The position numbers and the translations under genes are program-made. From the NCBI GenBank assembly GCA_963804645.1, contig CAWDRG010000015.1:192001-256000 (forward strand): a DNA stretch of 64,000 nucleotides, written 5' to 3'. Below are positions 28,896 through 52,847 of this stretch, in pieces. Within the stretch, counting starts at the first letter, position 1, and each line of letters opens with the position of its first letter. This DNA comes from an uncultured Bacillota bacterium. Lineage in GTDB: Bacteria; Sysuimicrobiota; Sysuimicrobiia; Sysuimicrobiales; Segetimicrobiaceae. The notes beneath the pieces were generated by a model that ran no database searches, was not told where the DNA came from, and worked only from the letters and a program-made list of their open reading frames with translations.

Positions 28896-28945
28896 GGCGA
28901 GGATCCTCTGAAAGGCCTGTAAATACGGGCGTTCCGGGCAGGGGG

Positions 28946-28997
28946 CGTTGGGCTCATAGCCCGAAGGTCGGAGGTTCAAATCTTCCCCCCGCTACCA
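28946..28997 (+). other. tRNA-fMet(CAT) 3' fragment, att-like site 1
   Basis: cgttgggctCATagcccgaaggtcggaggttcaaatcttccccccgctacca: anticodon arm, T arm and CCA present; no D arm or 5' acceptor strand. Confidence 0.85.
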
Positions 28998-29086
28998 AGT
29001 TCACTGAGTGGTTCTGCGTGACACTGCGCGGGTCCACTTTTGTTTTCCGAGAGATGTAACGAGCCTGTACTTCCCCAGTATTGGGA

Positions 29087-29338
29087 TTATCGCCGGTAAG
29101 CTTCGCGGCGATGTCGCACGTACTGAACTTCAACGATATTTGTGTTTACGATTCGATAAATGACTCGGTACTTGCCCATTCTCAGTTTCCAATACCCTTC
29201 CCACTCTCCGTGCAGCGGATCGCCCGCTCTGGGATCATCGATCAGTTGGTCTAGTGTTATCTCGAGCCTTCTCCGGAGTTCGGCGGGAATCTTCTGAATA
29301 TCGCGTAAGGCCCGCCCTGTGAATCGAAGTGCCGCCAT
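29087..29338 (-). CDS. RelE/ParE family toxin
   Basis: FTGRALRDI, PLHGEWEGYWKLRMGKYRVIY, VRHRREAY. Confidence 0.9.
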   Translation of the reverse strand: MAALRFTGRALRDIQKIPAELRRRLEITLDQLIDDPRAGDPLHGEWEGYWKLRMGKYRVIYRIVNTNIVEVQYVRHRREAYRR

Positions 29339-29625
29339 TAGCGATGCTTACGAGCGTCCCGCAGCGGAGGGTGACCGAACACATCCTCGTACGTGTATAC
29401 TCGATCCGCCTTGGCATCGGCCTGAGCCTCTCTCAGAGTCCTCAGCGCCCCCGGATCTGCCATTTCTTCGAGTGTCGCCATCATGCTGTTGTACTCATCA
29501 GTGCCGAGGAGGATGGCGACCGGGGTTCCTTCACGGGTAATGACCACTTGATCGCCTAGTTCAGCTGCGCGGATTAGCTTAGTAAGTTTCTGGTGAGCTT
29601 CCTTGACCCCGACTGTCCTGGCCAT
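29338..29625 (-). CDS. Phd/YefM family antitoxin
   Basis: VGVKEAHQKLTKLI...VVITREGTPVAIL...EYNSMMATLE. Confidence 0.9.
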   Translation of the reverse strand: MARTVGVKEAHQKLTKLIRAAELGDQVVITREGTPVAILLGTDEYNSMMATLEEMADPGALRTLREAQADAKADRVYTYEDVFGHPPLRDARKHR

Positions 29626-29668
29626 CGGGCACCTCACATCGTGTGGTATATACCCGAGTATATATATT

Positions 29669-29697
29669 AGTATAGATATTTCGCTGACCCTTGTCAA
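29669..29697 (-). promoter_or_regulatory. Sigma70 promoter of the phd-relE operon
   Basis: TTGACA-17 bp-TATACT on the minus strand, followed by gtatatac-type palindromes (likely operator). Confidence 0.8.
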
Positions 29698-29787
29698 AGG
29701 GTAAACCGTCGGTCATCGCGGGTGCAATTTCGCGTTTTGAGGAAACCTGCTCGAGCGGCACCAGGACGATTGGCAGAGGCAAAAGCG

Positions 29788-30186
29788 GTGGAGTTCGTCG
29801 TCGACACGTCGGCCTTGCTCGCGGTGCTGCTTGATGAGCCGGAGCGTCCGTCACTTATTGCTCGCACGCAGGGTGCGGTGCTGTTGGCTCCGGGCTCCGT
29901 CCCGTGGGAGGTAGGGAACGCACTCATTGCAGGATTTCGCCGGAAGCGACTCAGTGCTCGGCAAGTTCGGGATGCGTGGGTGTCATTCGAGCGGATCCCG
30001 CTGCGTTTGCTGCCCATCGCTGTTGCCAAGGCGCTTGAGTTGGCTGAGCAACTGGGACTCTACGCCTACGATGCCTATATTCTAGAGGCGGTCCGAGCCC
30101 ACCGCGCTCCTCTTTTGTCGATTGACAAGCACCTGCGGGCCGCGGCGCTGAAACTGGGGCTTGAGGTCTGGGAGGCGATGCCATGA
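29788..30186 (+). CDS. vapC: VapC/PIN domain toxin, copy 1
   Basis: VVDTSALLA, WEVGNAL, YAYDAYIL, LLSIDK; start uncertain. Confidence 0.85.
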   Translation: MEFVVDTSALLAVLLDEPERPSLIARTQGAVLLAPGSVPWEVGNALIAGFRRKRLSARQVRDAWVSFERIPLRLLPIAVAKALELAEQLGLYAYDAYILEAVRAHRAPLLSIDKHLRAAALKLGLEVWEAMP

Positions 30187-30458
30187 AGGTTTATACATAT
30201 TCTGAAGCTCGTCAGCGGCTCGCAAGCGTGTTGGAACAGTCACGGCGGGAAGGGCAAGTTCAGATCCGCCGCCGCGATGGGCAGTTGTTTGTACTGCAAC
30301 CAGCCGGCAGGGTAAGTTCTCCCTTAGATGTCCCGGGGATTACGGGGGATCTCCGGCCCGGTGAGTTGGCGGCTATGCTGCAGGAGAGCCGTCGGAGCGG
30401 CCACCGGTTCTGGGGCAACAGTCAAAGGGTGCCGGCACGGCGACAAGTGAAGCGATGA
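30183..30458 (+). CDS. Phd-like antitoxin, copy 1 (downstream of toxin)
   Basis: MKVYTYSEARQRLASVL...VQIRRRDGQ; overlaps vapC stop (ATGA). Confidence 0.8.
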   Translation: MKVYTYSEARQRLASVLEQSRREGQVQIRRRDGQLFVLQPAGRVSSPLDVPGITGDLRPGELAAMLQESRRSGHRFWGNSQRVPARRQVKR

Positions 30459-30479
30459 CGCCTCACCCCGGGGCCTGGG

Positions 30480-30520
30480 TAACCCGAAGGTCGGCGGTTC
30501 AAATCCTCCCCCCGCTACCA
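30480..30520 (+). other. tRNA-fMet 3' fragment, att-like site 2
   Basis: taacccgaaggtcggcggttcaaatcctccccccgctacca. Confidence 0.85.
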
Positions 30521-30525
30521 GTACA

Positions 30526-30566
30526 GAGGGCTCGCTCGAAGCATCGGAGCGAGTCCTTATTTTTTT
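30526..30566 (+). terminator. Terminator-like hairpin after tRNA fragment 2
   Basis: gggctcgctc...gagcgagtcc followed by a T run. Confidence 0.7.
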
Positions 30567-30655
30567 GAGATTGACTACTAGTTGAGTTGCGGATGTGGTC
30601 TCTCAAGCCGGTAACTTCCAAGCCTCCTTCGGCGAAGTAAGGGTATCTGGTCTGG

Positions 30656-31087
30656 TCAGGTTGACAGTACCTTCTTCAAGTAGTGCTTCTTGTGTCCAAT
30701 AGGGTATCCATCGAGGACACCGATTTCTTCGTAGCCGAGCTTTTCATAAAAACCAGGTGCCTGAAAACTATGTGTCTCGAGAGTGGCGATGTGGCAACCT
30801 CTGCGGATCGCCTCCTGTTCAACGGCGCGCATCAACTTTGATCCAAGTCCCTCTCCACGGAAGTCCTCGCGCACCCACAAGGATCGAATGTCGAGGCACC
30901 CACCCCATGTATACGCACGGATTCCGGCGATGAGCTGCCTCATGGAATCGCGCAAGAAGATCGCGAGGTCCCCGTAGTCGTAGATCTTTGTCTCCTCGAC
31001 GTTGAATGTGTCGACGTGGTCCCTGAGAGACTCGATGTCCTGGGGGTCGGGGTTGACTTCAATGTCGAATTGGAACTGCTGCTCCAT
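30656..31087 (-). CDS. GNAT family N-acetyltransferase
   Basis: LWVREDFRGEGLGSKLM, TLETHSFQAPGFYEKLGY. Confidence 0.92.
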   Translation of the reverse strand: MEQQFQFDIEVNPDPQDIESLRDHVDTFNVEETKIYDYGDLAIFLRDSMRQLIAGIRAYTWGGCLDIRSLWVREDFRGEGLGSKLMRAVEQEAIRRGCHIATLETHSFQAPGFYEKLGYEEIGVLDGYPIGHKKHYLKKVLST

Positions 31088-31205
31088 GACTGGCCCTCCC
31101 AGATCGAGTCCGAGTCGCAGTCACCATTCGGGAAAACAGGGATTCGACCTTCGGTGTTGGGGTAGCTGATCACGCCAGTAGTATCTGTCGTGTCGGTAAC
31201 TCCCA

Positions 31206-31225
31206 AAATCCTCCCCCCGCTACCA
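31206..31225 (+). other. Short tRNA-fMet 3' fragment, att-like site 3
   Basis: aaatcctccccccgctacca, starting in the T loop. Confidence 0.75.
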
Positions 31226-31232
31226 AGTTCAC

Positions 31233-31277
31233 CTAGAAGACTCGCTTGGTTAGCGCCGAGCGAGTCTTCTAATTTTG
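31233..31277 (+). terminator. Terminator-like hairpin after fragment 3
   Basis: tagaagactcgct...agcgagtcttcta followed by attttg. Confidence 0.75.
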
Positions 31278-31335
31278 CGTAAGCTTGGCTCGTGCCGCGC
31301 GACTTTAGGGTTCCGCCGTCTCCGAATCACTCCCA

Positions 31336-31355
31336 AAATTCTCCCCCCGCCGCCA
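31336..31355 (+). other. Degenerate tRNA-fMet 3' fragment, att-like site 4
   Basis: aaattctccccccgccgcca, preceded by the same actccca as site 3. Confidence 0.6.
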
Positions 31356-31655
31356 AACTTCCCGTAGCACTGGGTAGCGCCAGGCTCCGGGAACTGTCAT
31401 TTTCCAGGGCTTTCCGCGCGCTTGTCTCCGGCGTCCTGCACGCCGCTGCGCCGAATCGCGCCGGATGGAGCGTCGGATCGGTGCAGATTGAGTCCAGTGC
31501 TGAAGCCCTCTGGGAAGACGAGTTGTCGACCCACCTCGCCCTGTCGCTCCGGCAGCGACTTCATGCGGTGGCCGTACGGAGAAGGAGTTGGAGTCCCTTA
31601 ACGGAAGGTGCGAGCACGGGTGCCCATCTGCTTGGGCCCCGCGGAGGAGACGCGG

Positions 31656-32183
31656 ATGAATCCTTGGGGACCGTTTGTCGTCTTCATCGTGCTCGGCGTG
31701 GCCTGGACCTGTGTGTGGGCGTGGGCGGTCATCCGGGCGTCGGCGCCACCGGCGTCGTACGATGCCATTTACGCCAAAGGCGGGGCTCTGAGGCGGGCGC
31801 TGTTTCCGGTGCTCGCGGTGGTGCTGGCGGTGGCGTTCCTGGCTTCCATCCGGTGGTTTCCGTATCTCGGCCTGGCGGAAGCACGCCTCGGGCCTCCCAC
31901 GGTCCAGGTCGCCGTGACGTCGAAGATGTGGCTATGGACCATGAGCCAAACGCACGTGCCTGCCGGTACTCCTGTTGAGTTTTCGGTGACCTCGGTCGAC
32001 GTCAATCACGGATTCGGGATCTACGATCCTAGTGGTCATTTGATGGCGCAAGTGCAGGCGATGCCCGGATATACGAACCACCTGGTGGTGCGCTTTTCAC
32101 GGCCCGGTCAGTATCTGGTGCGGTGCCTGGAGTACTGCGGGAATCCCCATATCGCAATGATCGCCGTGCTCGACGTCCAATAG
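31656..32183 (+). CDS. Heme-copper oxidase subunit II (CuA), NorS-like
   Basis: Two TM helices, DVNHGF, QAMPGY, CLEYCGNPHIAM CuA motif. Confidence 0.88.
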   Translation: MNPWGPFVVFIVLGVAWTCVWAWAVIRASAPPASYDAIYAKGGALRRALFPVLAVVLAVAFLASIRWFPYLGLAEARLGPPTVQVAVTSKMWLWTMSQTHVPAGTPVEFSVTSVDVNHGFGIYDPSGHLMAQVQAMPGYTNHLVVRFSRPGQYLVRCLEYCGNPHIAMIAVLDVQ

Positions 32184-32197
32184 GGCGGGCGACGGGG

Positions 32198-33679
32198 ATG
32201 ACGGGAACACTGCTGAACGGGAAGAACGGCGCCGCACTCCGGGTCGCGCTCGTGTACCTGTATGTGGGATTGGTGTTGTTCCTGGTGATGGGCCTCTTCG
32301 GTCTTGCGATGCAACTCGGCCACGCGCAGTTTCTCCAGGTCGATCCGGCCCACTACGACGAGTTCTTCACGTTGCACGGCGCGGGCATGGTCGCCGGCGT
32401 GTTGCTTGGGGCGATGGGCGGCATCATTGCTGTGCTGAGCCCGCATGTGCGCCTCAACATCCGTCTTTTGTGGACCGCGTTCATTCTGTACATCCTCGGC
32501 ATCGGCTACATTCCCATCGCCGTCCTGCTCGGAGGTTTTGCCGCTGGCTGGACGGTGCTGTACCCACTGCCGATCGCTTATCAGGCAGGATGGACGCCGT
32601 GGGCCACGTTGGCGTTTCTGCTCGGCTACTTATTCGTCGCGCTGGGGTTCGGCGCGTGGTGCGTCGCAGTGGTGCTCGGGACCGCGCAGGCGTATGGGGG
32701 GCTGCGACGCGCCCTGGCGTGGCCGCTTCTGTTCTCGCGGAGCGGAGGGAAGGACCCTGGTCCCGTACCATACCTCCAGGACATCGTCGCGACGGTGATC
32801 GCCCTCTACGGAGCCTTCTCGGTCCTGGTCGGAGCGGTGTACCTGGTCCCGGTGTTTGGCCAGACTCTGAGCCTGACCGGTAACGTCGACGCGCTGCTCA
32901 TGAAGAATCTTGTCTATCTGTTTGGCCACGACATGGCCAACCTCACGATTTACCTTGGGGCCGGGATCGTCTATGCGACCTTGCCGTTGTACGCCGGGCG
33001 GGCGTGGAAGACCACTCGGCTCAGTGCGTTTGCGATCAACCTGCTCCTTGTTTCCATCCTGCTTCCGTACTTCCACCATCTCTACGAAGATTTTGCCAAC
33101 AGCGTGCCGCTCCAGTTCATCGGAGAGGTTGGGTCGTACGGGGCGGCGCTGCCCGTCCTGTTGGTGACCGTGCTGGGCGCGCTCATGCTGGTCCACCGCT
33201 CCGGGCTGCGCCTTGCAGTCACGCCGATCCTGATGCTGATCGGACTCTGGGGATGGGTGTTGGGCGGGATCGGTGCCGTGATCGATGCGACGATTCCGGT
33301 CAACCAAGTGTATCACAACACGATGTGGGTACCGGCACACTTCCACACGTACTATCTGCTCGGGGTGGTCGCATTCGTCTGGGCGTTCCTCTACCATTTG
33401 GTGACCGACCTCAGCGGGAAGCCAGAGCCAAGACTGAGCCGCACCGCAGCATGGGTCTACGGCGGGGCCGGGGTGGGGTTCGTGATGACGTTCTTCATCT
33501 CCGGGGCGGCGGGGATGCCTCGACGTTATGCGGTCCCGGTGCCGAGTACTGGGGAGGAAACACTGGCTGCCATCGGCGCGGGTTTCACAACACTCTTGGG
33601 GCTTGCGCTGGTGTGGCTCACGTACGACCTTCTCGCCCGGTTAGGCCCCGCCTGGCAGCGCACGCGGGGAGCCGGTTGA
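32198..33679 (+). CDS. Heme-copper oxidase superfamily subunit I, probable sNOR-type NO reductase
   Basis: TLHG, GWTVLYPL, YLFGHDMANLTIY (Asn at the cross-link Tyr position), FHHLY, HNTMWVPAHFH, GMPRRY. Confidence 0.8.
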   Translation: MTGTLLNGKNGAALRVALVYLYVGLVLFLVMGLFGLAMQLGHAQFLQVDPAHYDEFFTLHGAGMVAGVLLGAMGGIIAVLSPHVRLNIRLLWTAFILYILGIGYIPIAVLLGGFAAGWTVLYPLPIAYQAGWTPWATLAFLLGYLFVALGFGAWCVAVVLGTAQAYGGLRRALAWPLLFSRSGGKDPGPVPYLQDIVATVIALYGAFSVLVGAVYLVPVFGQTLSLTGNVDALLMKNLVYLFGHDMANLTIYLGAGIVYATLPLYAGRAWKTTRLSAFAINLLLVSILLPYFHHLYEDFANSVPLQFIGEVGSYGAALPVLLVTVLGALMLVHRSGLRLAVTPILMLIGLWGWVLGGIGAVIDATIPVNQVYHNTMWVPAHFHTYYLLGVVAFVWAFLYHLVTDLSGKPEPRLSRTAAWVYGGAGVGFVMTFFISGAAGMPRRYAVPVPSTGEETLAAIGAGFTTLLGLALVWLTYDLLARLGPAWQRTRGAG

Positions 33680-34605
33680 TGATGGAGAGTGCACGTCCGG
33701 CTACGGTCTGGACCGCGCTCAGCGTTCGGGCAGTCTACGGGCGCGTTGCGGTGGTCGCGGACTATCTGGCGCTGATGAAGCCGCGGATCATCCTGCTCTT
33801 GCTGATCACCACGGTCACGACGATGCTGATCGCGACGCCGCACCATGTTCCCGTGGGACTCCTCCTGCTGACTCTGCTGGGCGGAACGCTGGCCGCCGGG
33901 TCGGCGAATGCCTTCAACATGATCATCGATCGAGATACCGATGCGGTCATGCGCCGGACGCGCTCGCGTCCGGTGCCGGCGGGGCGCCTGCAAGTATCGC
34001 ACGTGCTCGCGTTCGGGACGGTCACGGGCCTGCTCTCTATCGTGATGCTGGGGGTCGGCGTGAACCTCGTGAGCGCGGGGCTCTCGACCGCGGGCCTCGT
34101 TTTCTATGTGGGCGTCTACACGCTCTGGTTGAAGCGGCGGACACCCAAGAATATCGTGATCGGCGGCGCGGCCGGCGCCGTGCCGCCGCTTGTGGGGTGG
34201 ACGGCCGTGACCGGGCACCTGGCAATGCCCGCGATGATCCTCTTCGGGATCGTCTTCCTGTGGACGCCGCCGCACTTCTGGGCGCTTGCTCTCGGGAAGG
34301 AGGACAAGTATCGTGCCGCGGCGGTCCCGATGCTTCCGGTCGTGCGCGGGGGGGCCGAGACCCGGCGACAGATCTTCGGGTACACGCTCGCGCTCGCCGC
34401 GATGACGCTCCTCCTGTACGCGCCTCTGCACGTGCTCGGGGTGACCTACCTGATCGCGGCCCTGGTCCTCGACGGTGTCTTCGTCGCGCTCGCGTGGGCG
34501 GTGCTGCGGGGCCGACCCCACATGGACGCGGCACTGTTCGCGTACTCGATTGTGTACCTGGCGCTTCTGTTCTCCGCCATGGCCATCGACCGCCTGGCGG
34601 GCTGA
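33679..34605 (+). CDS. ctaB: Protoheme IX farnesyltransferase (heme O synthase)
   Basis: LMKPRI, NMIIDRDTDAVMRRTRSRP, LKRRT..NIVIGGAAGAVPP, WTPPHFWAL. Confidence 0.93.
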   Translation: MMESARPATVWTALSVRAVYGRVAVVADYLALMKPRIILLLLITTVTTMLIATPHHVPVGLLLLTLLGGTLAAGSANAFNMIIDRDTDAVMRRTRSRPVPAGRLQVSHVLAFGTVTGLLSIVMLGVGVNLVSAGLSTAGLVFYVGVYTLWLKRRTPKNIVIGGAAGAVPPLVGWTAVTGHLAMPAMILFGIVFLWTPPHFWALALGKEDKYRAAAVPMLPVVRGGAETRRQIFGYTLALAAMTLLLYAPLHVLGVTYLIAALVLDGVFVALAWAVLRGRPHMDAALFAYSIVYLALLFSAMAIDRLAG

Positions 34606-34650
34606 CGCCCCTTCGCTTTCATCACACTTCTGTGCGAGGGAGACCTGCGG

Positions 34651-35619
34651 GTGAGTTGGTCTGTCGTGCTCACAACCTGGCACTGGCGCTCCGACGTGCT
34701 CCCGGTGTTGGTGATCGTGGTGGGCGTGTATCTGCGCGGGTGGATGGCGCTCAGGGCCCGCGGTTACGAGCGGGCCGCTCCAGCGCGCCGCCTCGTCGCC
34801 TTCGTGGGTGGCTGGGCGGTGGTGGCGGTGGCGCTCTTAGGCCCGCTCGATGCTTTCCAGTCGGTACGCTTCTCGATCCACATGGGCGAGCACGAACTGC
34901 TGATGATCGTCGCCGCTCCGCTCGTGCTGCTGGGAAGGCCATTGGCTGTGGCCGTGTGGGGGCTTCCGCGGCCTCTGCGGATATGGATCGGACGATCTCT
35001 TCGTCCGGCGGCACCGCCACGCCGCCTGTTCGACCTGGTGACGCGTCCGGCCGCCGCGTGGGGTATCTCCACGGGACTCCTCTGGGCGTGGCATGCTCCT
35101 GCCGCATACAACGCGGTGGAGGTGAATGGATTTCTCCACAACCTTCAGCACCTGTCCTTTTTTGCGGCGGGCCTTCTGCTTTGGTGGCCCGTCATTGGGA
35201 CCCCGCCATCGGGGCATCCGATGAGCCTGGCGGGGCGCGTCGGCTACCTGGCCGCCGCCATGGCGCAGCGAACGCTACTCGGGGGCATCATCACCCTGTC
35301 CGACCGGGTGCTCTTCAGTTACTATCAGGATCTGCCCGGCGTCGGAGTGACCTCGGCGCTTCACGATCAGCGCGTGGCCGGTGCGATCATGTGGTTCGGA
35401 AGTGGGATCGCGCTCCTCGCCGGGACCCTACTGGTAATTTGGAACGTCCCGCTGGCCCCCGGGGAATCGGACGGACCGGCGGTCCGAAATCGGCCCTGCG
35501 AGCGGAAGAGTAGAGGCTCGATCAATGAAGCGGGTGTTCATCGGACACCGGACGCCGACGATCCGTATGACACAGAGGTCCGGCGGATCGTCGACGAATG
35601 CTACAGCCGGGCGCGATAG
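34651..35619 (+). CDS. CtaG-like (caa3 assembly) copper-delivery membrane protein with aberrant C-terminal tail
   Basis: FSIHMGEHELLMIVAAPL, WAWHAP, LQH, DQRVAGAIMW. Confidence 0.85.
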   Translation: MSWSVVLTTWHWRSDVLPVLVIVVGVYLRGWMALRARGYERAAPARRLVAFVGGWAVVAVALLGPLDAFQSVRFSIHMGEHELLMIVAAPLVLLGRPLAVAVWGLPRPLRIWIGRSLRPAAPPRRLFDLVTRPAAAWGISTGLLWAWHAPAAYNAVEVNGFLHNLQHLSFFAAGLLLWWPVIGTPPSGHPMSLAGRVGYLAAAMAQRTLLGGIITLSDRVLFSYYQDLPGVGVTSALHDQRVAGAIMWFGSGIALLAGTLLVIWNVPLAPGESDGPAVRNRPCERKSRGSINEAGVHRTPDADDPYDTEVRRIVDECYSRAR

Positions 35620-35715
35620 GTGCGGACGGAGCACAAGGCGCTGCTGGAGTGGATGGCCAGGGTGCTGCTGGAACGGGGATCGCTCAAGCACCACGAGCTC
35701 GACGCCCTCATCGCC
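35560..35715 (+). pseudogene. FtsH C-terminal remnant
   Basis: DTEVRRIVDECYSRAR*VRTEHKALLEWMARVLLERGSL...ELDALI resembles the FtsH peptidase tail, with an in-frame stop. Confidence 0.6.
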
Positions 35716-35924
35716 GGACCTTCCATAACGGAGCATGGTCCACTGGGACTGCGCGCCATGAGGAACATCCGAGTGGACACCGCGGGACCATCCCATGAAC
35801 ATTCGGTGGCAACCGCCACGGGCGAGCCGCTCGTGTATCGGATAGCGGTCGGGCCAACGGTCGTGACGCCCCCGCCCACCGAACAGGATGACGCGGAGGT
35901 AGTAGTCGGGCTGCGGCGGGGTCG

Positions 35925-37064
35925 GTGGCGATAAGGCCGACCACGCCGCGGGAGGGGCGGGGCCGCGCCGAGTCGCGGGGAGGCCGGCTGGCCCTGATGG
36001 TGCTCAGCACCCTCGCGCTGTTCGGGGGGATGTGGGCGGGCCTTGAGCGCATGGGATGGCCGCTGCCGTCGTTTGCCCCGGCGTTGCCCGTTGCACACGG
36101 CCCGCTCATGGTGTCCGGGTTTTTCGGCACGCTCATCACCCTCGAGCGGGCGGTTGCCATCCAAGAGCCGTGGGCATATGCCGCGCCGTTGTTGAGCGGT
36201 CTCGGCGGCCTCGCGCTTCTCGGCGGTGTGCCGGCCCCGGTCGGACCGCTCTTGATCACACTCGGCAGCCTCGGTCTCGTTGGGATCTTCGGCCGCCTCA
36301 TGCAGCGTCAGCTCGCGTGGTTCGCGGTGATCATGGAAATGGGCGCGCTTATGTGGCTCATGGCGAACGTCGCGTGGCTTGCCGGCGTGGCCCTCCCGGT
36401 CGTCGTCTCGTGGCTCGCCGGCTTTCTCGTCCTCACCATCGTGGGCGAGCGGCTCGAGCTCAGCCGCCTGGCGGGGCGAGACCGCGGCCGTCAGACCGCC
36501 TTCGTCGCGATCACCGCGGTGTACGTGCTCGGGCTCGCGCTTTCGGGCACGACGGGGGCGCCAGGGCAGCGGCTTGCCGGACTCGCAATGGTTGGGCTGG
36601 CGGGATGGTTATGGCGGTACGACATCGCCCGATACACAGTCCGACGGCCGGGTCTCCCCCGCTTCATCGCGGTCGGCCTCTTGTCTGGCTACGTTTGGCT
36701 GGGCGTCGGCGGCGTGCTGTGGGTGGCGTTCGGGGGGGCCCTGACCGGACCACACTACGACGCGATGTTGCACGCAGTCTTCCTCGGGTTCGTGTTCTCG
36801 ATGGTGTTTGCGCACGCGCCGATCATCCTCCCGGCCGTCCTCGGCGGGGCTGTGCCGTATCGGGCGTGGTTCTATAGCCACATCGGGCTGCTCAACTTCT
36901 CACTCGTCGTGCGCCTTGCGGGAGATCTCGACGGCTGGGATTCGGTGCGGGCGTGGGGCGGGCTGTTCGGCGTGGCCGCCATTCTCCTCTTCCTGCTCAA
37001 CACGCTGTCCTCGGCGGCAACAGCTCGCCGGGCGCGACCTCATCCAGCGGAGCACCATCCATGA
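35925..37064 (+). CDS. NnrS-like polytopic membrane protein
   Basis: HGPLMVSGFFGTLITLERA, LTIVGERLELSR, YDAMLHAVFLGFVFSMVFAHAPIILP; context next to NOR-like genes. Confidence 0.7.
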   Translation: MAIRPTTPREGRGRAESRGGRLALMVLSTLALFGGMWAGLERMGWPLPSFAPALPVAHGPLMVSGFFGTLITLERAVAIQEPWAYAAPLLSGLGGLALLGGVPAPVGPLLITLGSLGLVGIFGRLMQRQLAWFAVIMEMGALMWLMANVAWLAGVALPVVVSWLAGFLVLTIVGERLELSRLAGRDRGRQTAFVAITAVYVLGLALSGTTGAPGQRLAGLAMVGLAGWLWRYDIARYTVRRPGLPRFIAVGLLSGYVWLGVGGVLWVAFGGALTGPHYDAMLHAVFLGFVFSMVFAHAPIILPAVLGGAVPYRAWFYSHIGLLNFSLVVRLAGDLDGWDSVRAWGGLFGVAAILLFLLNTLSSAATARRARPHPAEHHP

Positions 37065-39628: not shown

Positions 39629-39798
39629 CGTCGCTCCTCCCACGTCCCCGACGTCTGCGGGGCGGCACGTGGACACGTGGATGGCCCCTTGACTTCTGGA
39701 AGTATATCAGTTATATTACTGTAAGTCCACCGGGCCTGTCACCTCGCGCGCGCCATCGTCCGCGCGGTCCACCGCGTGCCCCTGGGGGGGATGGTCTC

Positions 39799-44551: not shown

Positions 44552-44905
44552 CTACTTCTCGTGAGGTTCCTTGGCGATCGCGCGTAGCAACCGATCCGTC
44601 TCCTTCCGCGACAGCGTTTCCATCTTGTGCACGATCCGCCGCAACCTGCGATGGTTTTGCAGCCACTGCCCGCAGCGCTGAGCTTGCGCGGCCGTGAGGC
44701 GCCTCGCGATCGACCGGCCGCGAATCTTATAGGTCCAATCGTAGTAAGGCCCGTGGAGCGTCGGTGGATCCGCCATGCAGTGGCAGCCGGGCTTGCCGCA
44801 TCGGGTGAATCGGCGCACGAGCGTGCCAGGCCGGACCCACCCGAGGCGTCCCACCGCGGCCTTGAGCGCCTCATACGTCCGTATCGCGTCTGTCGCGTCC
44901 GCCAT
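44552..44905 (-). CDS. DUF6788-like protein, copy B, inside IS1634
   Basis: GTLVRRFTRCGKPGCHCMADPPTLHGPYYDW. Confidence 0.8.
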   Translation of the reverse strand: MADATDAIRTYEALKAAVGRLGWVRPGTLVRRFTRCGKPGCHCMADPPTLHGPYYDWTYKIRGRSIARRLTAAQAQRCGQWLQNHRRLRRIVHKMETLSRKETDRLLRAIAKEPHEK

Positions 44906-47310
44906 GTCCGCACACTCGAACAAATGCTTGACTTCGGAAATCTGTCTGTTATTATACAGACAGACACAATGGAGTCGTCAAGATGCCGTGCGGTCCCCAG
45001 GCGGATGACGCTCCGGCCCCGCGCTGGCCGTCGTCCCCACAGCGCTCCTCCGGGCGCGGTGCACCGGATCCATCACCTCGGGCCGCATCCGATCATCGCG
45101 CACTTCCTCGAACGCCTCACCCTGGAGCCCATCATTCGCGGCTGCGTGGGCACGCGCGCCAGGGGGTCGTCGATCACGCGCGCACGCTCGCCGTGCTGGT
45201 GCACAACCTGCTCGTCTCCCCCGGCCCGCTGTATCGGATCGCCACGTGGCTCGCGCCGGTGGAGCCCGCGGTGCTGGCGCTGACCCCCTCGCAGTACGCG
45301 GCGATCAACGACGATCGGGTGGCGCGGGCCCTGGATGCGCTCACCTCCGAACGGGGGCGCAGCATATGGTTCCGCTTGGCCTTGCGCATCATCAAGCAGT
45401 TTGAACTTGCGACGGAGCGGTTCCACCACGACACGACCACGGTCACGTTCCAGGGCGCCTACGCGACTGCCCACGGCAAGCCCCACATCACCCATGGGCA
45501 CAACAAAGATCACCGCCCGGACCTCAAGCAGCTCGTCTTCGGCCTCACCGCCACTGCCGATGGCGCAATCCCCGTGTGGCACGACGTCCATAGCGGCAAC
45601 CGCAGCGACGATACGGTGCACCGGAGCACCGTGGACGCCTTGCGGACGCTCGTGGGCCGCGCGGAGTTCATCTACGTGGCCGATGCCAAGCTCTGCACCC
45701 AGGACAATCTGCGGCATATCGCGGCCTATGGCGGGCAATTTGTCACCGTGATGCCGCGGACCTGGAAAGAAGACCATCACTTCCGCGATCGGCTGCGGGA
45801 CCATGGCATTCGGTGGCACCCCATTCTCCGCATCGCCAACCACCGGCACAAGGATGGTCCGCCAGACATCTTCGCGAGCTGTGCGGGTACGTACACGACC
45901 ACGGCCGACGGATATCGGATGATCTGGATCCGGAGCTCGCAGAAAGCGGTCGAGGACGCGCAGGCGCGGGAGCGACGCCTCGCCCAGGCCCAGGCCACGC
46001 TGCGGGAGTTCCAAGACAAACTACCGCGGCAGCGGCGACGGGATCGGACCCACGGGGGAATCCAGCGTGCGGTCACCAAGATTCTCCGCGAGACCGGCAC
46101 CCGGCCATTTCTCCAGGTGACCGTGAAGCGCCACGTCGAGCAGCGTCGCCACTATCTACGGCGCGGCCGGCCCACCGCCGAGACGCCGGTGGAGGTCGAA
46201 CGACACACGACCTACACGCTGGACGTGCGCCGCGATGGGCAGGCCCTGGCCCGCGAGCGGCGCACCGATGGGGTCTTCCCGCTCGTGACGAACTGAGGTT
46301 GCCCCGGTTCCGTGGAGGGTCAATCGCTTGAGTATCAGCCCTTTACCACCACCTCTCGCATGGTTCTTGTTGTTCTCTGCTCGGCCGCCGCACGTCGTCG
46401 TCTCTCGGCGGGGGTATCTGGATGTCTTCCCCCTCTCATAGAATCGCTGTGAGCGCATCCTAGCCGCCTGCTTCGCTGAGCATTTCATCTCGACTGCGCT
46501 CCGCGGACGGCCGTTGGCGCTGTGACCCCCGCCGTTCGAATTCTGCGGGCGAGAGATATCCAGCGCAGAGTGACGCCGGTGGGAATTGTAGAAACCCTCG
46601 ATGTAATCGAAGAGCGCCAGCCGCGCTGCCTTCGCGTGGCGAACGTGTGCTGCTGTAAGAGCTCCGTCTTGAGCGACGCGAAGAAGGCTTCGGCGAGGGC
46701 ATTATCATACGCGTCGCCGACGGAGCCCATCGACGGCACGACGCCCGCGTCTTGGCAGCGCCGACTGAAGGTCAGGCTCGTGTACTGCGCGCCGCGATCG
46801 GAGTGATGCACGACGCCCGACCGCCGGCCGCCGGTTCCACACCGCCATGTTGAGCGCGTCCACGACCAGTTCGGTCCGCAGCGTGTCCGCCATCGCCCAG
46901 CCGACGATCCGGCGACTCCACGCATCCAGCACCGTCGCCAGATAGAGCCACCCTTCCGCGGTGGGCACGTACGTGATGTCTGCGACCCAGAGCTGATCGG
47001 GCGCGGAGGCCGTAAAATTCCCGCTTCACGAGGTCCGGCGCCGCGGCCGCCTCGCGATCCTGCCGCGTGGTGCCACGGTACCGTCGCCGCTGGGCGCCCG
47101 CCAGTCCGGCCGCGCGCATCAGACCGCGCGACCCGTTTCCGCCCACAGCTGGAGGCCTGCGCCTGGAGCTCGGCATGGATCCGCGGCGCCCCGTAGGTTC
47201 CCGGCTCTCCTCATGAATCGCTTGGATCTGCGCGAGCAGGCCTTGATCCGCCTGCGCCCGCGCCGAGGGTGGACGATCCACCACGCGTAGAACCCGCTGG
47301 GACAGTGGCT

Positions 47311-49370
47311 TCATACTACACCTCCGGCAGTAGCCTTTTGGAGTGACGGTTTGAGGTGCACGGGGGTGGCGGTCCTCTGGCGACACGCCTCTTCGACCGC
47401 CGGAGAAAAAGGAACACACAAGCGACCGCTCGTGTCGCGACGCGCTGCAAGCTTGCCTGCGTGGATCCAATCGTATACTGTCCATTTGCTGACCCCCAGT
47501 CGGCGGACAACCTCGCAGACCGTCAGCTCTCCTGGGCGAGGCTGAAAGGACGATGCAGGAATGTGGTAGGTGTGGCGGATCCAGCGGACAGATTTCACAT
47601 CAAATGGCCGCCCCCCTTTCCGGGTCATTCCCGCCGTGTTGAGTGCGGTGACGATCTCATCATCCTGCTGCATCGCCAGCGCCCGAATCAGATCGACGAC
47701 CGCACCCGGCGTCCGTTGAAGATCGCTGGCTGAGGCAGGGCGCTGGACGACGAGCTCCTCAGTCGCACCCGAGCGCCAGCGAATGCCGACGCCTACACGC
47801 GCACTGCCTGGAGCGGACCGTATCGTTACGTCCGCGACGAGCGCGCGAAGAATCCGCTTGCGGTCTGGGGCCGAGGTCGTAGGAGCAGCCCACAACGCGG
47901 GCACGTTGCGAGCGAGCGCCTCCAATTCTTGGCGCGATGGCAGCGGCGGCGCCTCCGCGCGCGCCCCCGCTAACGCGGTTTCCGCTTCCGCCAATGCGAC
48001 GAGCGCAGTTTCCCATCGTTGCTCCAGGCTCCGCGCCACAAGGCGGTTCTCCGGCTCACACTGATGGAACGCTCGCTCCGCCCGCGCCGCCTCATAGCGC
48101 GCCCGCTCCACCGGGAGTTCAGCGGCCCGGATGCGATTGGTCCGTCGTGCTGCGATCTCATCGGCGGCCTGGAGTGCCAGAGCAATCTGGTCTGTCGTGA
48201 CCACGTCTAACATCCGCCGGGCCACGGCATCATCGATCACATCCGCCCGAACCGTGCGACACTGCGGAGTCTGGAGGTGCTCGACACGGGAATAGGAACA
48301 ATCGTAGGCGGCCTTTCCGGAGGCATAGGAAGCATACCTCGGCGTCATCATCCGGCCACAGCCGCCGCACACGACGATCCCTTGCAGCAGCGCCTCGCCT
48401 TCCCGCGCAGGGCGTGCGCCTCCGCTCGTGTGGTTATGCGCCAACCGGTCCAGATTTGCAAGATAGGTCTCCCAGCTGATGTACGCGGGGTGATGGTGAG
48501 GGAGAACCACAAGCCATTCCTCCCGCGGAAGCTCTACTCGCTTCCGCCGAATTGAGCCATCCGGCTGTACGATGCGCCGGCATCGGTATCGTCCAAAGAC
48601 GTAGGTCCCAGCATAGACCGGGTTGGAAAGCATGCCAAGCACCCGGTAGTACGTGAGCCGGCCCCACCGGATCTCTCCCGTCCAGACGCCCCCGTGCACT
48701 CGCCGAGGAAACGGACGCCGGCGAAAGATGCCCGCCGCGCCATATGCTGATCCGCTGGCCTCGAACGCGGCGAAGACGTCTGTGACGGCCTGCCGGATCT
48801 CCTCGTCCAAGTCCATCACGGTACGGCCGTCCTGATCATACACGTAGCCGACTGGCAGCGGAACGCGTAATTCACCACGGGCCGCCGCGGCACGTTTCGA
48901 CTCCTGCAACCGCCCGGCGAGGATATGAAGTTCTGCTTCGGACATTGCGCCCTTCAAGCCCAACAGGAGCCTGTCGTTAAAATGTTGCAGATTGTACACG
49001 CCGTCGGCATCGATGATCAGCGTGTCCGTCAGGTTGCAGAATTCCAACAATCGTTGGAGGTCCGCGGAACTGCGGGCTAACCGCGAGACCTCCAACCCCA
49101 AGATGGCGCCGACCTCGCCCAGGCACACCCGACTGACGAGCTCCTGAAACCCCGCACGGGTGGTGCCGCTGCGACCGGACAGGCCCAGATCGGCATCGAT
49201 CACGAGGATCTTGGATGCTTCCCACCCCAATCGGGTGGCTTCCTCCGCCAGTGCATACTGCCGGGCGGTGGACTCGGTGTGTTCGCGCACCTGGGTCATC
49301 GTGGACTGTCGCACATACACGATTGCCAGACGCTCCGGTGAGTGGGCGTGATCGTCCTCGCGTCGCTCAT
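47311..49370 (-). CDS. Large serine recombinase with Zn ribbon and C-terminal HTH (probable indel near 49335)
   Basis: AIVYVRQST, DLGLSG, EVSRLARS, NDRLLLGLKGAMSEAEL, CGGCG, EPENRLVARSLE. Confidence 0.92.
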
Positions 49371-49455
49371 GCGCGTTCCCCCCGGCGGCGAGCGCGGCCT
49401 CGAGCATGTTGGCCAGCGGCGCCACGAGTTCGCTCGTCGCGCCGCTGAACCCAAC

Positions 49456-49800
49456 TCAGGTCAGCTCCCCGCGGGTCAGCAGTTCCAGGTTGATCGCCGA
49501 GATCTCCGCCAGCGTCGCCTCGATGCGGGCGGTGAGCATGACCCGGCGGCGTACCGCCGCCGCCAGCGCCGCCGGAATATACAGGAGACGCCGTCCGTTC
49601 CCGCCGGACCGTCAGGAACACGTACGGACCGTGCAGCTCCCCCGCGCGCACCGGCAGCCCGGTTTCCCACACCGCCGGTGCTGGATTACCAGCGCCCCGT
49701 GCATGACCGCCTCGAGCGTCGGGAGGCTGCGTGCCCGTTGGGTCCGGCGCGCGCGTAATTGCCTCGCGCTGAGCTTGGCGAGTGGTATCTTTTGTATCAT
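49456..49800 (-). CDS. DUF6788-like protein, copy C (two apparent indels)
   Basis: HGALVIQHRRCGKPGCRCARG / ELHGPYVFL / LLYIP...EISAINLELL over three frames. Confidence 0.7.
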
Positions 49801-49839
49801 TGGTACCAAAGATATCACCTGCCGCGGGAAACGTCAAGG

Positions 49840-50112
49840 GGTGCGACAGCACCGCCACCACGCGGAGCACCTCCACCAGAATGGAGGCGGTGAGAGGGTG
49901 TGGCTCCGGAGGGGCGCCGCGATCGGTAAAAGCTTCTGGCAACGCAATACTGCCGGCTGGCCCGGCATCACAAATGTAGATACGTCCACGAGTGGCGTAG
50001 CGGCGTGTGACCAGTATGGGAAGTCGCTGGTCCCTCAGCGGATGAAACGGATGGGTGACAACGAGGGAATCCGAAAGACTACTGACTGCACTCGTAGTTT
50101 GCGTGGACCGTC
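49840..50112 (-). CDS. DUF5372 (Y4bD/Y4pK)-like ORF body lacking its own start codon
   Basis: VVTHPFHPLRDQRL...SIALPEAFTD; open to the element boundary; 3' end uncertain. Confidence 0.65.
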
Positions 50113-50189
50113 GGGGGAAACACCCAACACCCGGGCGAGCGTGGCGACGTGATGCGCGGCCTTCTCCTGTTGCATGAACGTAAACCCCG

Positions 50190-50489
50190 CTACGGGGTCG
50201 AGTTCGTTTCCCTGGCAAAGAAGGCCGCGGCTTTTCGGAGGATCTCGCGCTCTTCCCGCAAGATCCGGACTTCACGACGCAAGCGCCGCACCTCAGCGTG
50301 TTCCTCGGTCGTCAATCCATCGGTGCGCTTCCCGCGGTCGAGCTCATCCTGTTTCAGCCACGTGTAGAGCGACTGCTCCGACACTCCCAGATCCTTCGCA
50401 ATGCGCGCACGCGACTTCCCGGATTCTCGAACCAACCGGACCGCTTCCTCTCGAAACTGCCGTGCATACGGCGGTCGACTCTTTGGCAC
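50190..50489 (-). CDS. IS3 family OrfA
   Basis: YARQFREEAVRLV...IAKDLGVS...LREEREILRKAAAFFA. Confidence 0.9.
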   Translation of the reverse strand: MPKSRPPYARQFREEAVRLVRESGKSRARIAKDLGVSEQSLYTWLKQDELDRGKRTDGLTTEEHAEVRRLRREVRILREEREILRKAAAFFARETNSTP

Positions 50490-51069
50490 CGTGGACTCCC
50501 CTCTGGGGCTTCAGCCCCTCTAACCATAAAGTGTCCACGAAACCGGGGCAAGTCCAAACCTCGCCAAGACTCCGAAGCGCGAGGTCCTGTCCATGTACAA
50601 ATTCCAACCCTATGTCGAGAAACGCTTCTCGCTGTTGAAAACCGACCTGGAGATCGCGCCGGTGTACCTGAAGAAACCACGCCGGGCGGCGGGCCTGCTC
50701 CACGCCTACTTTATCGCCCTCGTCGTCGCGAGCCTCATCGAGCGGGAGGTGCGCACCAGCATGCGGCAGCGGAACCTCAAGACGCTGGCCCTCTTGCCGG
50801 AGCATCGTCCCACGCCGACCCCAACGTGGCCCAGGATTCTGGAGGCCTTTCAAGACGTGCGGTGGTACGAGGTCGAGCTCAACGGGGAGGTCACGGCGTT
50901 TCCGATCGAGCTGTCACAACTCCAACGTACGCTGCTCGAGCTCTTGGACATTCCGCCCGAGGTCTACCAATAGGCCTCCCCAAGAGTCCCCGAGAAAATC
51001 GGGAGACTTCGCTTCGCGACTTGCGGAATGTCGGACACATGTGTCCGGTACAACCTGTTTTACCTATGT

Positions 51070-51880
51070 GTGCAGCCCATAAAGCCATACACTCAGTCGG
51101 TGAGAGTCCGACCCGCGGAGTCGCCCAACTTGCCGCGGTAGTGTTGTCCGGCGTCTCGAAGGAGGTGACTCGCGAGACGGAAGCCCGGACGTACAAGTCT
51201 CGGCGGCCCGGCAGAGATATAAAGGCCGAGGTCGGTGGCCCAGGAGACGAGCGATGGATGGGGCCGCAACATGAAGTGAACACTGCAGCGTCGTTATTCA
51301 GGCCCACTCAGAGCTCCGGTAACGGAGTGCTCAGCGCCACAGTGGGAATGAGGGTGCCAAGTTTCTACATAGGGGACGAAGGCCAGTGTGGTTGCGGAAG
51401 AAGCTGGGCGTGTGCACGCAACCAGCCCTCCGGCGTAGGGGTGGCGGCAACATCCAAAGGGTGGATGGTCAAAGCGGGGAAGGGCTCTCACCCGTGAGGC
51501 CAGTGATATAACCGACTTCACTCGGGAAGTTCACTGGTGGGGGAGAGTCTGGCGCATGAGGCCGTAGGAGCGATGATCGCTCCGATAACAAGGAGCGGGA
51601 GCAAAGGGCCTCTGGGAGCAGGCCAGCGTTGGAGAAGGAGAGGGTGCGGGTGCTGATAACGCGCTCGGGCTACCGCCAAGATCCGGACCGACGCTGTAGG
51701 CTGCAGCAAACCAATCGCTCCCCAGGTACAGGCTGGGAAGGATCGGGAACGCTGCAACTGAGCGCGTGCTCTTCCAGCCGGATTGGGGAAAACCCGCTAT
51801 CCGGTTGATAGGGGGCGGGGTGGAACCGTGGTCAGGCTCCTTAACGGTAACCTGACCGGCGCGCCACCCTGCTACCCGAC
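51070..51880 (+). ncRNA. ORF-less group II intron (~0.8 kb)
   Basis: 5' end GTGCA at 51070 (or GTGTG at 51068); DV cagccggattggggaaaacccgctatccggttg; DVI gggggcggggtgg...ccaccctgct-a-cccg-ac; no RT ORF. Confidence 0.82.
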
Positions 51881-51895
51881 CTCAGGCCGCTCACC

Positions 51896-51940
51896 GAGAG
51901 GACTCGCTTGGTTAGCACTGAGCGAGTCCTCTAACTTTTG
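51896..51940 (+). terminator. Terminator-like hairpin of the same family as 30526 and 31233
   Basis: agaggactcgct...agcgagtcctct followed by aacttttg. Confidence 0.75.
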
Positions 51941-51944
51941 CTCG

Positions 51945-51984
51945 TTGACGTGCGAGACCGAGACGTGATATCGTACAATTGTAC
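51945..51984 (+). promoter_or_regulatory. Promoter/operator of vapC-phd copy 2
   Basis: TTGACG-18 bp-TATCGT overlapping palindrome gtacaattgtac, immediately before ATG 51985. Confidence 0.6.
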
Positions 51985-52398
51985 ATGAGCGCAATAGCGG
52001 TGGAGTTCGTCGTCGACACGTCAGCCTTGCTCGCGGTGCTGCTTGATGAGCCGGAGCGTCCGTCACTTATTGCTCGCACGCAGGGTGCGGTGCTGTTGGC
52101 TCCGGGCTCCGTCCCGTGGGAGGTAGGGAACGTACTCATTGCAGGATTTCGCCGGAAGCGACTCAGTGCTCGGCAAGTTCGGGATGCGTGGGTGTCATTC
52201 GAGCGGATCCCGCTGCGTTTGCTGCCCATCGCTGTTGCCAAGGCGCTTGAGTTGGCTGAGCAACTGGGACTCTACGCCTACGATGCCTATATTCTAGAGG
52301 CGGTCCGAGCCCACCGAGCTCCTCTTTTGTCGACTGACAAGCGCCTGCGAGCCGCGGCGGTGAAACTGGGGCTTGAGGTCGGGGAGGCGATGCCATGA
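51985..52398 (+). CDS. vapC: VapC/PIN toxin, copy 2
   Basis: Near-identical to 29788-30186, with native start MSAIAVEFVVDTS. Confidence 0.88.
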   Translation: MSAIAVEFVVDTSALLAVLLDEPERPSLIARTQGAVLLAPGSVPWEVGNVLIAGFRRKRLSARQVRDAWVSFERIPLRLLPIAVAKALELAEQLGLYAYDAYILEAVRAHRAPLLSTDKRLRAAAVKLGLEVGEAMP

Positions 52399-52670
52399 AG
52401 GTTTATACATATTCTGAAGCTCGTCAGCGGCTCGCAAGCGTGTTGGAACAGTCACGGCGGGAAGGGCAAGTTCAGATCCGCCGCCGCGATGGGCAGTTGT
52501 TTGTACTACAACCAGCCGGCAGGGTAGGTTCTCCCTTAGATGTCCCGGGGATTACGGCGGATCTCCGGCGCGGTGAGTTGGCGGCTATGCTGCAGGAGAG
52601 CCGTCGGAGCGGGCACCGGTTCTGGGGCAACGGTCGAAGGGTGCCAGCACGGCGACAAGCGAAGCGATGA
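52395..52670 (+). CDS. Phd-like antitoxin, copy 2
   Basis: Near-identical to 30183-30458. Confidence 0.85.
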   Translation: MKVYTYSEARQRLASVLEQSRREGQVQIRRRDGQLFVLQPAGRVGSPLDVPGITADLRRGELAAMLQESRRSGHRFWGNGRRVPARRQAKR

Positions 52671-52692
52671 CGCCTCACCCCGGGGCCTGATC

Positions 52693-52732
52693 AACCCGAA
52701 GGTCGGAGGTTCAAATCCTCCCCCCGCTATCA
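52693..52732 (+). other. tRNA-fMet 3' fragment, att-like site 5
   Basis: aacccgaaggtcggaggttcaaatcctccccccgctatca. Confidence 0.82.
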
Positions 52733-52847
52733 CATAGTCAAGGTCCGGAATGCCCGAAACGCTCGGTACTCAATCGTTTCGGGCGTTCGGCTTTTCTGGG
52801 GTACTTGTTACCTGGGTACCCGTCAATACCCAGGAATACCGCTCAGA

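Follow-up and report, generated by a model that had tools for sequence, protein, structure and literature searches.

How does a bacterial genome come to carry a row of truncated copies of one tRNA gene, separated by small groups of genes, without a tyrosine integrase that could have placed them there? The question is raised by 64,000 nucleotides of contig CAWDRG010000015.1 (C15; 503 kb) from an uncultured Bacillota bacterium, whose genome (GCA_963804645.1, here G000) comprises 5.3 Mb in 22 contigs. In this stretch (C15:192001-256000, hereafter the window), five fragments of the 3' end of tRNA-fMet follow each other on the same strand. An earlier note, made from the letters of the sequence alone, had interpreted them as the borders of integron-like mini-cassettes. 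According to our analysis, they probably belong to a 68-kb accretion array at the initiator tRNA gene, composed of integrase-less units that are either passengers resembling cis-mobilizable elements (CIMEs) or trimmed remnants, and not integron-like. The footprint is of a kind already known to be left by integrating mobile elements; this array is an unusually dense example.

Displaced ends of the initiator tRNA gene

The five fragments withstand closer inspection. With up to three mismatches, the terminal 20-mer of the gene, AAATCCTCCCCCCGCTACCA, matches the window five times, always on the + strand, and none of 100 shuffled sequences contains any match; alignment to the intact gene yields blocks of 20-48 nt. 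ARAGORN finds no tRNA gene in the window. The intact initiator tRNA-Met(CAT) gene, one of 51 tRNA genes that the program predicts in the genome, is located 15.3 kb upstream of the window at C15:176605-176681; the array thus starts outside the window, which holds its distal part. It is the sole initiator-type tRNA-Met gene of the genome: its C1/A72 end and GGG/CCC anticodon stem are initiator features, and the two remaining CAT tRNAs differ. Genome-wide, the 20-mer occurs in seven copies, including that of the gene itself, all of them on the + strand of C15 between 176662 and 244732; outside C15 the genome contains none. Two further fragments lie upstream of the window, i.e. a 48-nt copy (C15:180616-180663) identical to the gene at 48 of 48 positions and an 8-nt relic (C15:182676-182683). 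The whole array spans C15:176605-244732, its successive 3' ends being 3982, 2020, 38314, 1523, 705, 130 and 21377 bases apart, and the GC content of its units is 54-66% versus 68.6% for the genome. On the 5' side of the intact tRNA gene ends an open reading frame (ORF) for a Mutator-family (IS256-type) transposase (C15:175241-176641; L001:3241-4641); about 3.5 kb around this ORF are not present at the syntenic position in relatives.

Alignment to the intact gene sorts the fragments into three length classes, each with at least two copies: 48 nt, starting in the anticodon stem; 40-41 nt, starting in the anticodon loop; and 20 nt, starting in the T loop, with which the 8-nt relic is grouped. Directly 5' of the block, each class has a conserved sequence of its own. 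The 48-nt class shares an arm of about 240 bp that terminates in GGGCGTTCCGGGCAGGGG, a motif also found directly 5' of a 49-nt fragment in the related genome G019. Both copies of this arm are recognizable in the array: the right end of the 38-kb unit B2 is about 84-94% identical to that of unit A (C15:179102-179263 and 180586-180663), where the arm is split by an ISL3 element. The 40-41-nt class is preceded by a VapC/Phd-like operon, 96.9% identical over 743 bp between the copies, and the 20-nt class by ACTCCCAAAAT. A 25-nt motif, GGGGTCCGCACACAGGTYCGCAC, with two TCCGCAC half-sites, has three copies in the genome, all within the array, namely at C15:177699-177723 (inside unit A) and at window positions 28871-28895 and 52848-52872. 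The second stands 55 nt before a 48-nt fragment; the third belongs to the native flank, 115 nt beyond the terminal fragment. Proteins may bind to this motif, which would then have travelled with flanking DNA.

On their 3' side, the intact gene and its fragments are followed by eight flanks, all of which fold as hairpins (-17.8 to -32.3 kcal/mol), and each unit opens with a strong terminator-like hairpin. One family, marked by AGTTCAC, follows the tRNA gene, the fragments ending at C15:220997 and C15:223225 and the 8-nt relic, occurs as an orphan at window position 51896, and also follows the tRNA in G006. The other, marked by GTACAGAG, follows the fragments ending at C15:180663 and C15:222520; the hairpin that opens unit D thus recurs at C15:180664. 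The hairpins reported in the earlier note behind its second and third fragments and as an orphan are indeed stable (Table 1). In its view, the orphan also implied a lost sixth fragment. A former tRNA junction at this place is supported by G006, where the homologous hairpin directly follows the intact tRNA; the sixth fragment itself was not found. A look-alike to the left of the hairpin ('ccctgctaccc') belongs to an 853-bp repeat, and when the nested elements are removed in thought, no convincing fragment appears at 38000-38025. Downstream of the terminal fragment, the sequence is 76-78% identical to that directly 3' of tRNA-fMet in two genomes from other genera, G010 and G011, and represents the native flank of the gene.

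The units between the fragments are real, and several are much too small to be autonomous. Unit A contains Phd-like and PIN genes, BrnT with an Xre-type helix-turn-helix gene, and the ISL3 element; unit B1, a GNAT gene broken by an IS256-type element; unit B2 (38 kb), AbrB-like and PIN genes, pentose-phosphate genes, a MalT/LuxR regulator, a P450, dehydrogenases, an OprB-type porin, MscS and DUF2252. Unit C carries a ParE/Phd and a VapC/Phd pair, unit D a GNAT gene and unit G a VapC/Phd pair. Unit E is gene-free, and both of its flanks repeat those of the preceding fragment. Unit F begins with COX2, COX1, CtaB and CtaG, followed by a 14-kb nest of insertion elements. Two assignments of the earlier note have to be revised here: its 'NOR-like' cluster is, according to Pfam, a haem-copper oxidase cluster, and its fourth and fifth fragments lie 21.4 kb apart, with the nest accounting for about 14 kb. 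An AGTTCAC-type hairpin precedes toxin-antitoxin (TA) genes in four units of the array (A, B2, C and G) as well as in G006 and the metagenome contig L035. The orientation of the genes is mixed, with ParE/Phd and GNAT on the - strand and VapC/Phd on the + strand, where an operator-like palindrome precedes VapC. The usual order of TA operons is antitoxin first; in both VapC/Phd copies it is reversed, with the PIN gene first and the Phd-like gene second, and the copies differ by six residues in each protein.

Traces of decay and duplication are plain. The GNAT copy of unit B1 (C15:180664-182683) has received an IS256-type insertion with a 9-bp target duplication and has lost its first codons in a deletion whose junction adjoins the last 8 nt of the tRNA fragment; its identity to the copy in unit D is 87% to the left of the insertion and 98% to its right. 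The VapC/Phd duplication starts in the start region of VapC (29776), not at an attachment (att) site, and stops exactly at the end of a fragment. On a larger scale, two blocks, I (C15:180664-222520) and II (C15:222521-244732), have like ordered ends and unrelated middles: the left ends consist of the GTACAGAG hairpin, GNAT, a 20-nt fragment and the AGTTCAC hairpin; the right ends of the AGTTCAC hairpin, VapC/Phd and a 41-nt fragment. This arrangement would follow from the arrival of two composite islands related to each other, or else from a single unequal exchange between fragments with later insertions.

Integrases, sister arrays and relatives

The earlier note had proposed to look upstream for an intact tRNA-fMet gene and an integrase; the gene is there and the integrase is not. 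Among 233 ORFs of C15:175-247 kb, none has a Phage_integrase domain by Pfam, and a six-frame search of the genome with PF00589 gives 11 matches, none of them between C15:15449 and C15:299668 and none, therefore, in the 68-kb array. Its statement that the window lacks both a tyrosine integrase and an intact tRNA gene is thus confirmed by these searches and by ARAGORN. Searches for an integrase-bearing parent were equally negative. The tRNA end combined with an AGTTYAC pattern leads to four loci without an informative integrase; combined with GTACAGAGGG, it has no match in metagenome contigs; and four of the genome's own tyrosine recombinases, used as tblastn queries, match none of the loci retrieved. 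The arms are common to several units and genomes, and no integrase-bearing carrier was found among the loci searched and the PF00589 matches listed.

The initiator tRNA gene is not the only one concerned. Displaced same-strand 3' fragments lie downstream of 15 of the 51 tRNA genes, with at least two fragments in seven cases (Thr 5, Leu 5, fMet 5-7, Lys 3, Arg-TCT 3, Ser-CGA 2, Pro-TGG 2). Block lengths are consistent per array (Thr about 49 nt; Leu 17-20 nt; Lys 44-50 nt with a conserved GACAAT motif upstream), and so are the flanking motifs within each array; in the six arrays other than that of fMet, the cargo consists of ordinary single genes. The fragments are 85-100% identical to their tRNAs. 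Six of the arrays, including that of fMet and together amounting to about 25 units, show neither a PF00589 match nor an integrase by Pfam; a PF00589 fragment occurs in the Pro-TGG array only.

Among 41 related genomes, 28 carry the 20-mer with at most one mismatch, and G000 alone has more than two copies. The genes upstream of tRNA-fMet are syntenic within the genus. In G006, from the same genus, the intact tRNA is followed by an AGTTTAC hairpin, a VapC/Phd pair with 76-78% identity to copy 2, the same palindrome before VapC and then only a doubtful fragment. G002 has a 24.4-kb insert ended by a 21-nt fragment (L003/L004, G002:C33:44934-69364). The T stem of its intact tRNA-fMet reads GCAGG/CCTGC, and the displaced fragment has CCTCC, as in other species of the genus; the T arm of the tRNA was therefore replaced or converted after, or by, the integration. 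G001 retains a 75-aa C-terminal integrase stump 0.6 kb from the tRNA.

The order-wide comparison, comprising 94 genomes, extends the pattern beyond the genus; none of the statements made here draws on G034 or G062, two genomes flagged as unpublished. GNAT homologs at 72-82% identity adjoin tRNA-fMet-type fragments in G015 (49-nt fragment, hairpin, GNAT), G012 (GNAT, GGTAACTCCCAAAAT arm, 21-nt fragment) and G014 (degenerate fragment, GNAT). Without any integrase, a one-gene unit of 0.63 kb lies between the tRNA and a 48-nt fragment in G054, and a 2.85-kb TA unit between the tRNA and a 42-nt fragment in G074. G016 possesses the VapC/Phd pair in a non-tRNA context. Small units with GNAT genes or TA pairs are conserved at tRNA-fMet in other genera.

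Metagenome contigs give an independent view of the locus. The runs that hold this sequence are peat metagenomes, present as assembled contigs at 3-5x word depth, and such contigs cannot show rare forms. Five metagenome contigs carry GGTAACTCCCAAAAT with the core in varying neighborhoods: L036 reproduces units D, E and F (30647-32147) at 99.5%, the core in L035 is followed by a hairpin and then a PIN gene, and L037 shows another context. Further contigs bridge 28752-29090 without a difference (X1 record 3) and 31059-31966 with two (X2 record 13). In the contigs of four low-depth runs covering 27500-33500, three junctions are confirmed and there is no clean joint at the att boundaries, rare forms being undetectable in such material. 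A 'skip' joint from 28943 to 30496 (side 21, 30 other letters between) was rejected as an excision product, since the contig concerned is tRNA-like; for two 'go back' joints (29764 to 28528), no matching repeat was found. In L034, compared with window positions 30743-33531, an IS256-type end is joined directly to a D-type GNAT copy (6 of 6 diagnostic positions) at TTCATAAAA, the very site at which G000 has the insertion in its other GNAT copy; this is either a strain variant or a chimera across 128 bases identical in both copies.

Table 1. Features of the tRNA-fMet array in the window and positions of the other tRNA arrays of G000. Window positions unless a contig is named; the C15 position of a fragment end is added in brackets.
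Feature	Position	Strand	Evidence
Right-end arm of 38-kb unit B2, 48-nt class, with GGGGTCCGCACACAGGTTCGCAC and GGGCGTTCCGGGCAGGGG just 5' of the fragment	28764..28949	+	
tRNA-fMet 3' fragment, 48-nt class	28950..28997 (C15 end 220997)	+	46/48 match the gene
AGTTCAC-type terminator-like hairpin, left end of unit C	28998..29048	+	-17.8 kcal/mol, z -2.7
ParE toxin (29087-29338) and Phd/YefM antitoxin (ORF 29338-29697)	29087..29697	-	PF05016 1e-14; PF02604 6.9e-12
VapC (PIN) and Phd-like pair, copy 1	29722..30458	+	PF01850 5.3e-11; PF02604 7e-7
tRNA-fMet 3' fragment, 41-nt class, from anticodon loop	30480..30520 (C15 end 222520)	+	40/41 match
GTACAGAG-type terminator-like hairpin, left end of unit D (GNAT)	30521..30570	+	-22.0 kcal/mol; 0/200 shuffles as stable
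GNAT acetyltransferase gene, 143 aa, intact	30656..31087	-	PF00583 1.4e-14
Arm between GNAT gene and 20-nt fragment, terminating in GGTAACTCCCAAAAT	31088..31205	+	
tRNA-fMet 3' fragment, 20-nt class, from T loop	31206..31225 (C15 end 223225)	+	20/20 match
Unit E: AGTTCAC-type hairpin (31226-31280) and short arm terminating in ACTCCCAAAAT	31226..31335	+	Hairpin -29.4 kcal/mol, z -6.4; 0/200 shuffles as stable
Degenerate 20-nt-class fragment	31336..31355 (C15 end 223355)	+	17/20 match
Haem-copper oxidase cluster: COX2, COX1, UbiA/CtaB, Caa3_CtaG, two unassigned ORFs, weak CopD-like ORF	31608..37720	+	PF00116 2.3e-8; PF00115 4.3e-48; PF01040 7.5e-63; PF09678 1e-56; CopD-like PF05425 6.6e-7, under its cut-off
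Mobile-element nest	38026..51887	.	Pfam; 99% identical copies on C2, C9, C11, C19, C22
Orphan AGTTCAC-type hairpin, left end of unit G	51896..51936	+	-28.8 kcal/mol; 1/200 shuffles as stable
VapC (PIN) and Phd-like pair, copy 2, TGTACAATTGTACA palindrome upstream	51979..52670	+	PF01850 2.6e-13; PF02604 6.2e-7
Terminal tRNA-fMet 3' fragment, 40 nt, outermost attR	52693..52732 (C15 end 244732)	+	39/40 match
Native downstream flank of the tRNA gene: hairpin, then GGGGTCCGCACACAGGTCCGCAC motif	52733..52872	+	-27.5 kcal/mol
Thr-TGT array	C6:87595-99599		
Leu-GAG array	C9:1374150-1398765		
Lys-TTT array	C9:482398-498090		
Arg-TCT array	C19:54595-63455		
Ser-CGA array	C9:695682-704571		
Pro-TGG array	C11:326-26089		

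The nest within unit F is composed of split Mutator-family IS copies, an IS1380-like transposase, rve fragments and a split IS with a DUF4277 transposase (44491-46293 and 50557-51035). Three DUF6788 genes are scattered in it (39254-39676, 44555-44923 and 49615-49818). It also contains a 2.8-kb element (47299-50115) that encodes a 704-aa large serine recombinase (47314-49425, - strand) and a DUF5372 protein. We rejected this recombinase as the enzyme of the array: the element has a 99.6% twin at C11:12985-15805, and according to PMC4383910, targeting of tRNA genes is known for tyrosine integrases only. The nest closes with an ORF-less, group-II-intron-like repeat of 853 bp (51035-51887) that ends 8 bases before the orphan hairpin and accounts for the sole Rfam match of the window (RF02003, group II intron D1-D4, 51094-51274, 58.4 bits). 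At least four further copies at 99% lie on C19 and C11, and diverged ones on C4; several of them adjoin the ends of other mobile elements.

Comparison of possible origins

Seen together, the regenerated tRNA gene, the subsites at which the fragments start, the class-specific motifs and the terminators apparently supplied by the elements make up the classic signature of recombination by tyrosine integrases, presumably with at least three specificities. According to PMC4383910, tyrosine integrases are, as far as known, the only enzymes to target tRNA genes, with crossover subsites in the anticodon loop, in the T loop and at the T/acceptor junction. The islands collected there by Islander agree with our locus in having an intact tRNA gene, same-orientation 3' fragments downstream and starts at the anticodon-loop and T-loop subsites; under its criteria, only 4 tandems of three or more are reported there among 2168 genomes. 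They differ in that each island contains an integrase, which none of the units does. Because Islander requires an integrase per island and at least 2 kb, it would reject every unit of this array.

A closer likeness is offered by CIMEs, as defined in a review (PMC5704250) with reference to Pavlovic et al. 2004 and Bellanger et al. 2011. In the account of the review, such elements arise by decay, further elements integrate at the remaining att site (accretion), and a helper can mobilize them. As in CIMEs so described, the units are flanked by direct att repeats of the target gene, stand in tandem at one target and lack integrase and transfer genes; they differ in the failure to find a related element with an integrase, in their target (tRNA-fMet of an uncultured soil lineage), in the mixture of three att classes, in sizes down to 0.1-0.8 kb and in that no excision was seen in the contigs. 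In the model proposed for the tycheposons of Prochlorococcus (10.1101/2020.12.28.424599), new elements enter at the tRNA on the near side of the island and displace older material inward, and the islands contain partial tRNAs, degenerated elements and transferred flanks, mostly without an integrase. Growth at a tRNA, partial tRNAs and mostly integrase-less material are common to both systems; elements with an integrase and a replication module are found neither here nor in the relatives examined, and phylum and cargo differ. For TA or GNAT mini-units at tRNA-fMet, our limited search of the literature found no published description.

The accretion model that we favor would work as follows. Integrative elements would recombine repeatedly with the 3' end of the tRNA gene; each integration would rebuild the tRNA from the element's own copy and bring a new terminator hairpin, and the old 3' end would become a dead fragment, displaced further downstream. 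Recombinases of at least three specificities would be responsible: one crossing over in the anticodon stem and leaving 48-nt fragments, one in the anticodon loop (40-41 nt) and one in the T loop (20 nt). Many of the remaining units may have been stabilized by TA operons located directly after the hairpin. IS insertions, the deletion that truncates one GNAT copy, and either an unequal exchange or the arrival of two composite islands would have reshaped the array later. It can no longer move by itself, and a visiting integrase of matching specificity could in principle excise or shuffle its units. Mobilization in trans is possible; circularization of single units with insertion in trans is an idea already described for CIMEs.

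Several observations weigh against this model. An integrase-bearing parent sharing the unit arms was not found, the arm pattern of the 48-nt class has no match in genome contigs, and none of the 150 PF00589 matches listed, out of 442 in the 94 genomes, lies within 20 kb of the tRNA-fMet place. PF00589 remnants are missing from this and five other arrays (about 25 units), although other parts of the genome do contain recognizable stumps of 42-80 aa. Blocks I and II could have arisen by either of two routes. Finally, the fragment beside GNAT has the T-stem variant of the host in G000 (CCTCC), and the one in G012 is a single base away from the variant of its own host (CGAGC versus CCAGC in the tRNA); host-matched T stems, seen in these two genomes only, hint at separate later recombinations instead of one inherited relic.

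What, then, of the integron-like platform, on which mini-cassettes would be circularized and inserted singly by a recombinase acting in trans, with the tRNA-fMet end as an attC-like site? Integrons possess intI, attI, the promoter Pc and attC sites, i.e. imperfect palindromes recombined as folded single strands, and their mostly promoterless cassettes point in one orientation; they often carry TA and acetyltransferase genes. The array, with small groups of genes lined up between repeated recombination sites and with such cargo, is indeed reminiscent of this. Units C, D and G, like those of G054 and G074, are compact and their genes intact, free of pseudogene debris; the GNAT unit, present twice, is bounded by att cores on either side; the motif just 5' of the 20-nt core recurs among differing neighbors in five metagenome contigs. 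The absence of PF00589 traces and the host-matched T stem beside GNAT fit as well. Yet no intI-type gene occurs in or beside the array, no attI and no Pc, and a candidate trans recombinase was not found. With no copy of the tRNA-fMet end outside C15, there is no free attP either. The repeats are direct copies of the tRNA 3' end in three classes with motifs of their own, so they do not represent one attC-like site; genes occur in both orientations; the array is headed by an intact tRNA gene, and insertion is anchored on this essential gene, which needs regeneration. Moreover, the left boundary of the VapC/Phd duplicate is away from any site, GNAT and VapC/Phd diverge between genera about as much as core neighbors (72-82% versus 70-84%), and copy numbers above two are limited to one genome of 41. 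We therefore regard the integron-like interpretation as improbable.

Pure erosion in situ, in which every unit would be the stump of a self-integrated, integrase-bearing island that kept its addictive or useful genes, seems improbable to us in this strict form. It is true that G001 has an integrase stump beside its tRNA, that the GNAT copy of unit B1 is decaying, that TA genes are the expected last survivors, that decay to CIMEs is the usual route according to PMC5704250, and that the between-genus identity of GNAT and VapC/Phd resembles that of core genes. But the absence of any integrase remnant from about 25 units is odd for plain erosion, because short fragments of 20-48 nt are still 85-100% identical to the tRNA; moreover, unit E (109 bp) and the unit of G054 (0.63 kb, one gene) would demand very precise trimming. 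Whether the units are eroded ends of large islands, as the earlier note had considered possible, thus receives a mixed answer, with the integrase stump and the eroding GNAT unit on one side and the missing parent on the other, and both erosion and passenger transport are therefore kept within the accretion model. An assembly artefact, i.e. a chimera across repeated tRNA ends in a metagenome-derived genome, can practically be dismissed: the runs are peat metagenomes and the join in L034 could be chimeric, but independent contigs bridge three regions of the array, both flanks are syntenic with relatives, and the 503-kb contig runs through many 99% IS repeats.

Possible consequences for gene capture at tRNA genes

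A bolder idea, which we consider rather unlikely, is that in this soil lineage, single genes and TA operons travel as minimal att-flanked units (hairpin, cargo, arm, core) that never encode a recombinase, and that integrases specific for tRNA genes, brought in transiently by visiting elements, insert, shuffle and duplicate them. If this were true, at least seven tRNA arrays of one genome would act as open, integrase-less sites of gene capture, and type II TA loci would gain a defined vehicle.

Irrespective of this idea, an essential, single-copy initiator tRNA gene can be a long-lived landing pad. Here it has collected TA modules, the gene for a small acetyltransferase, 38 kb of metabolic genes and a cluster for a respiratory oxidase. 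Standard island finders overlook this array entirely, since they require an integrase and a minimum length. The wider pattern comprises similar mini-units in related families and, in this genome alone, about 25 units without an integrase, distributed over six tRNA genes. If the units were deposited as passengers instead of being eroded in place, the gain of genes at tRNA sites in uncultured soil bacteria would rely on recombinases that are rarely caught in genomes.

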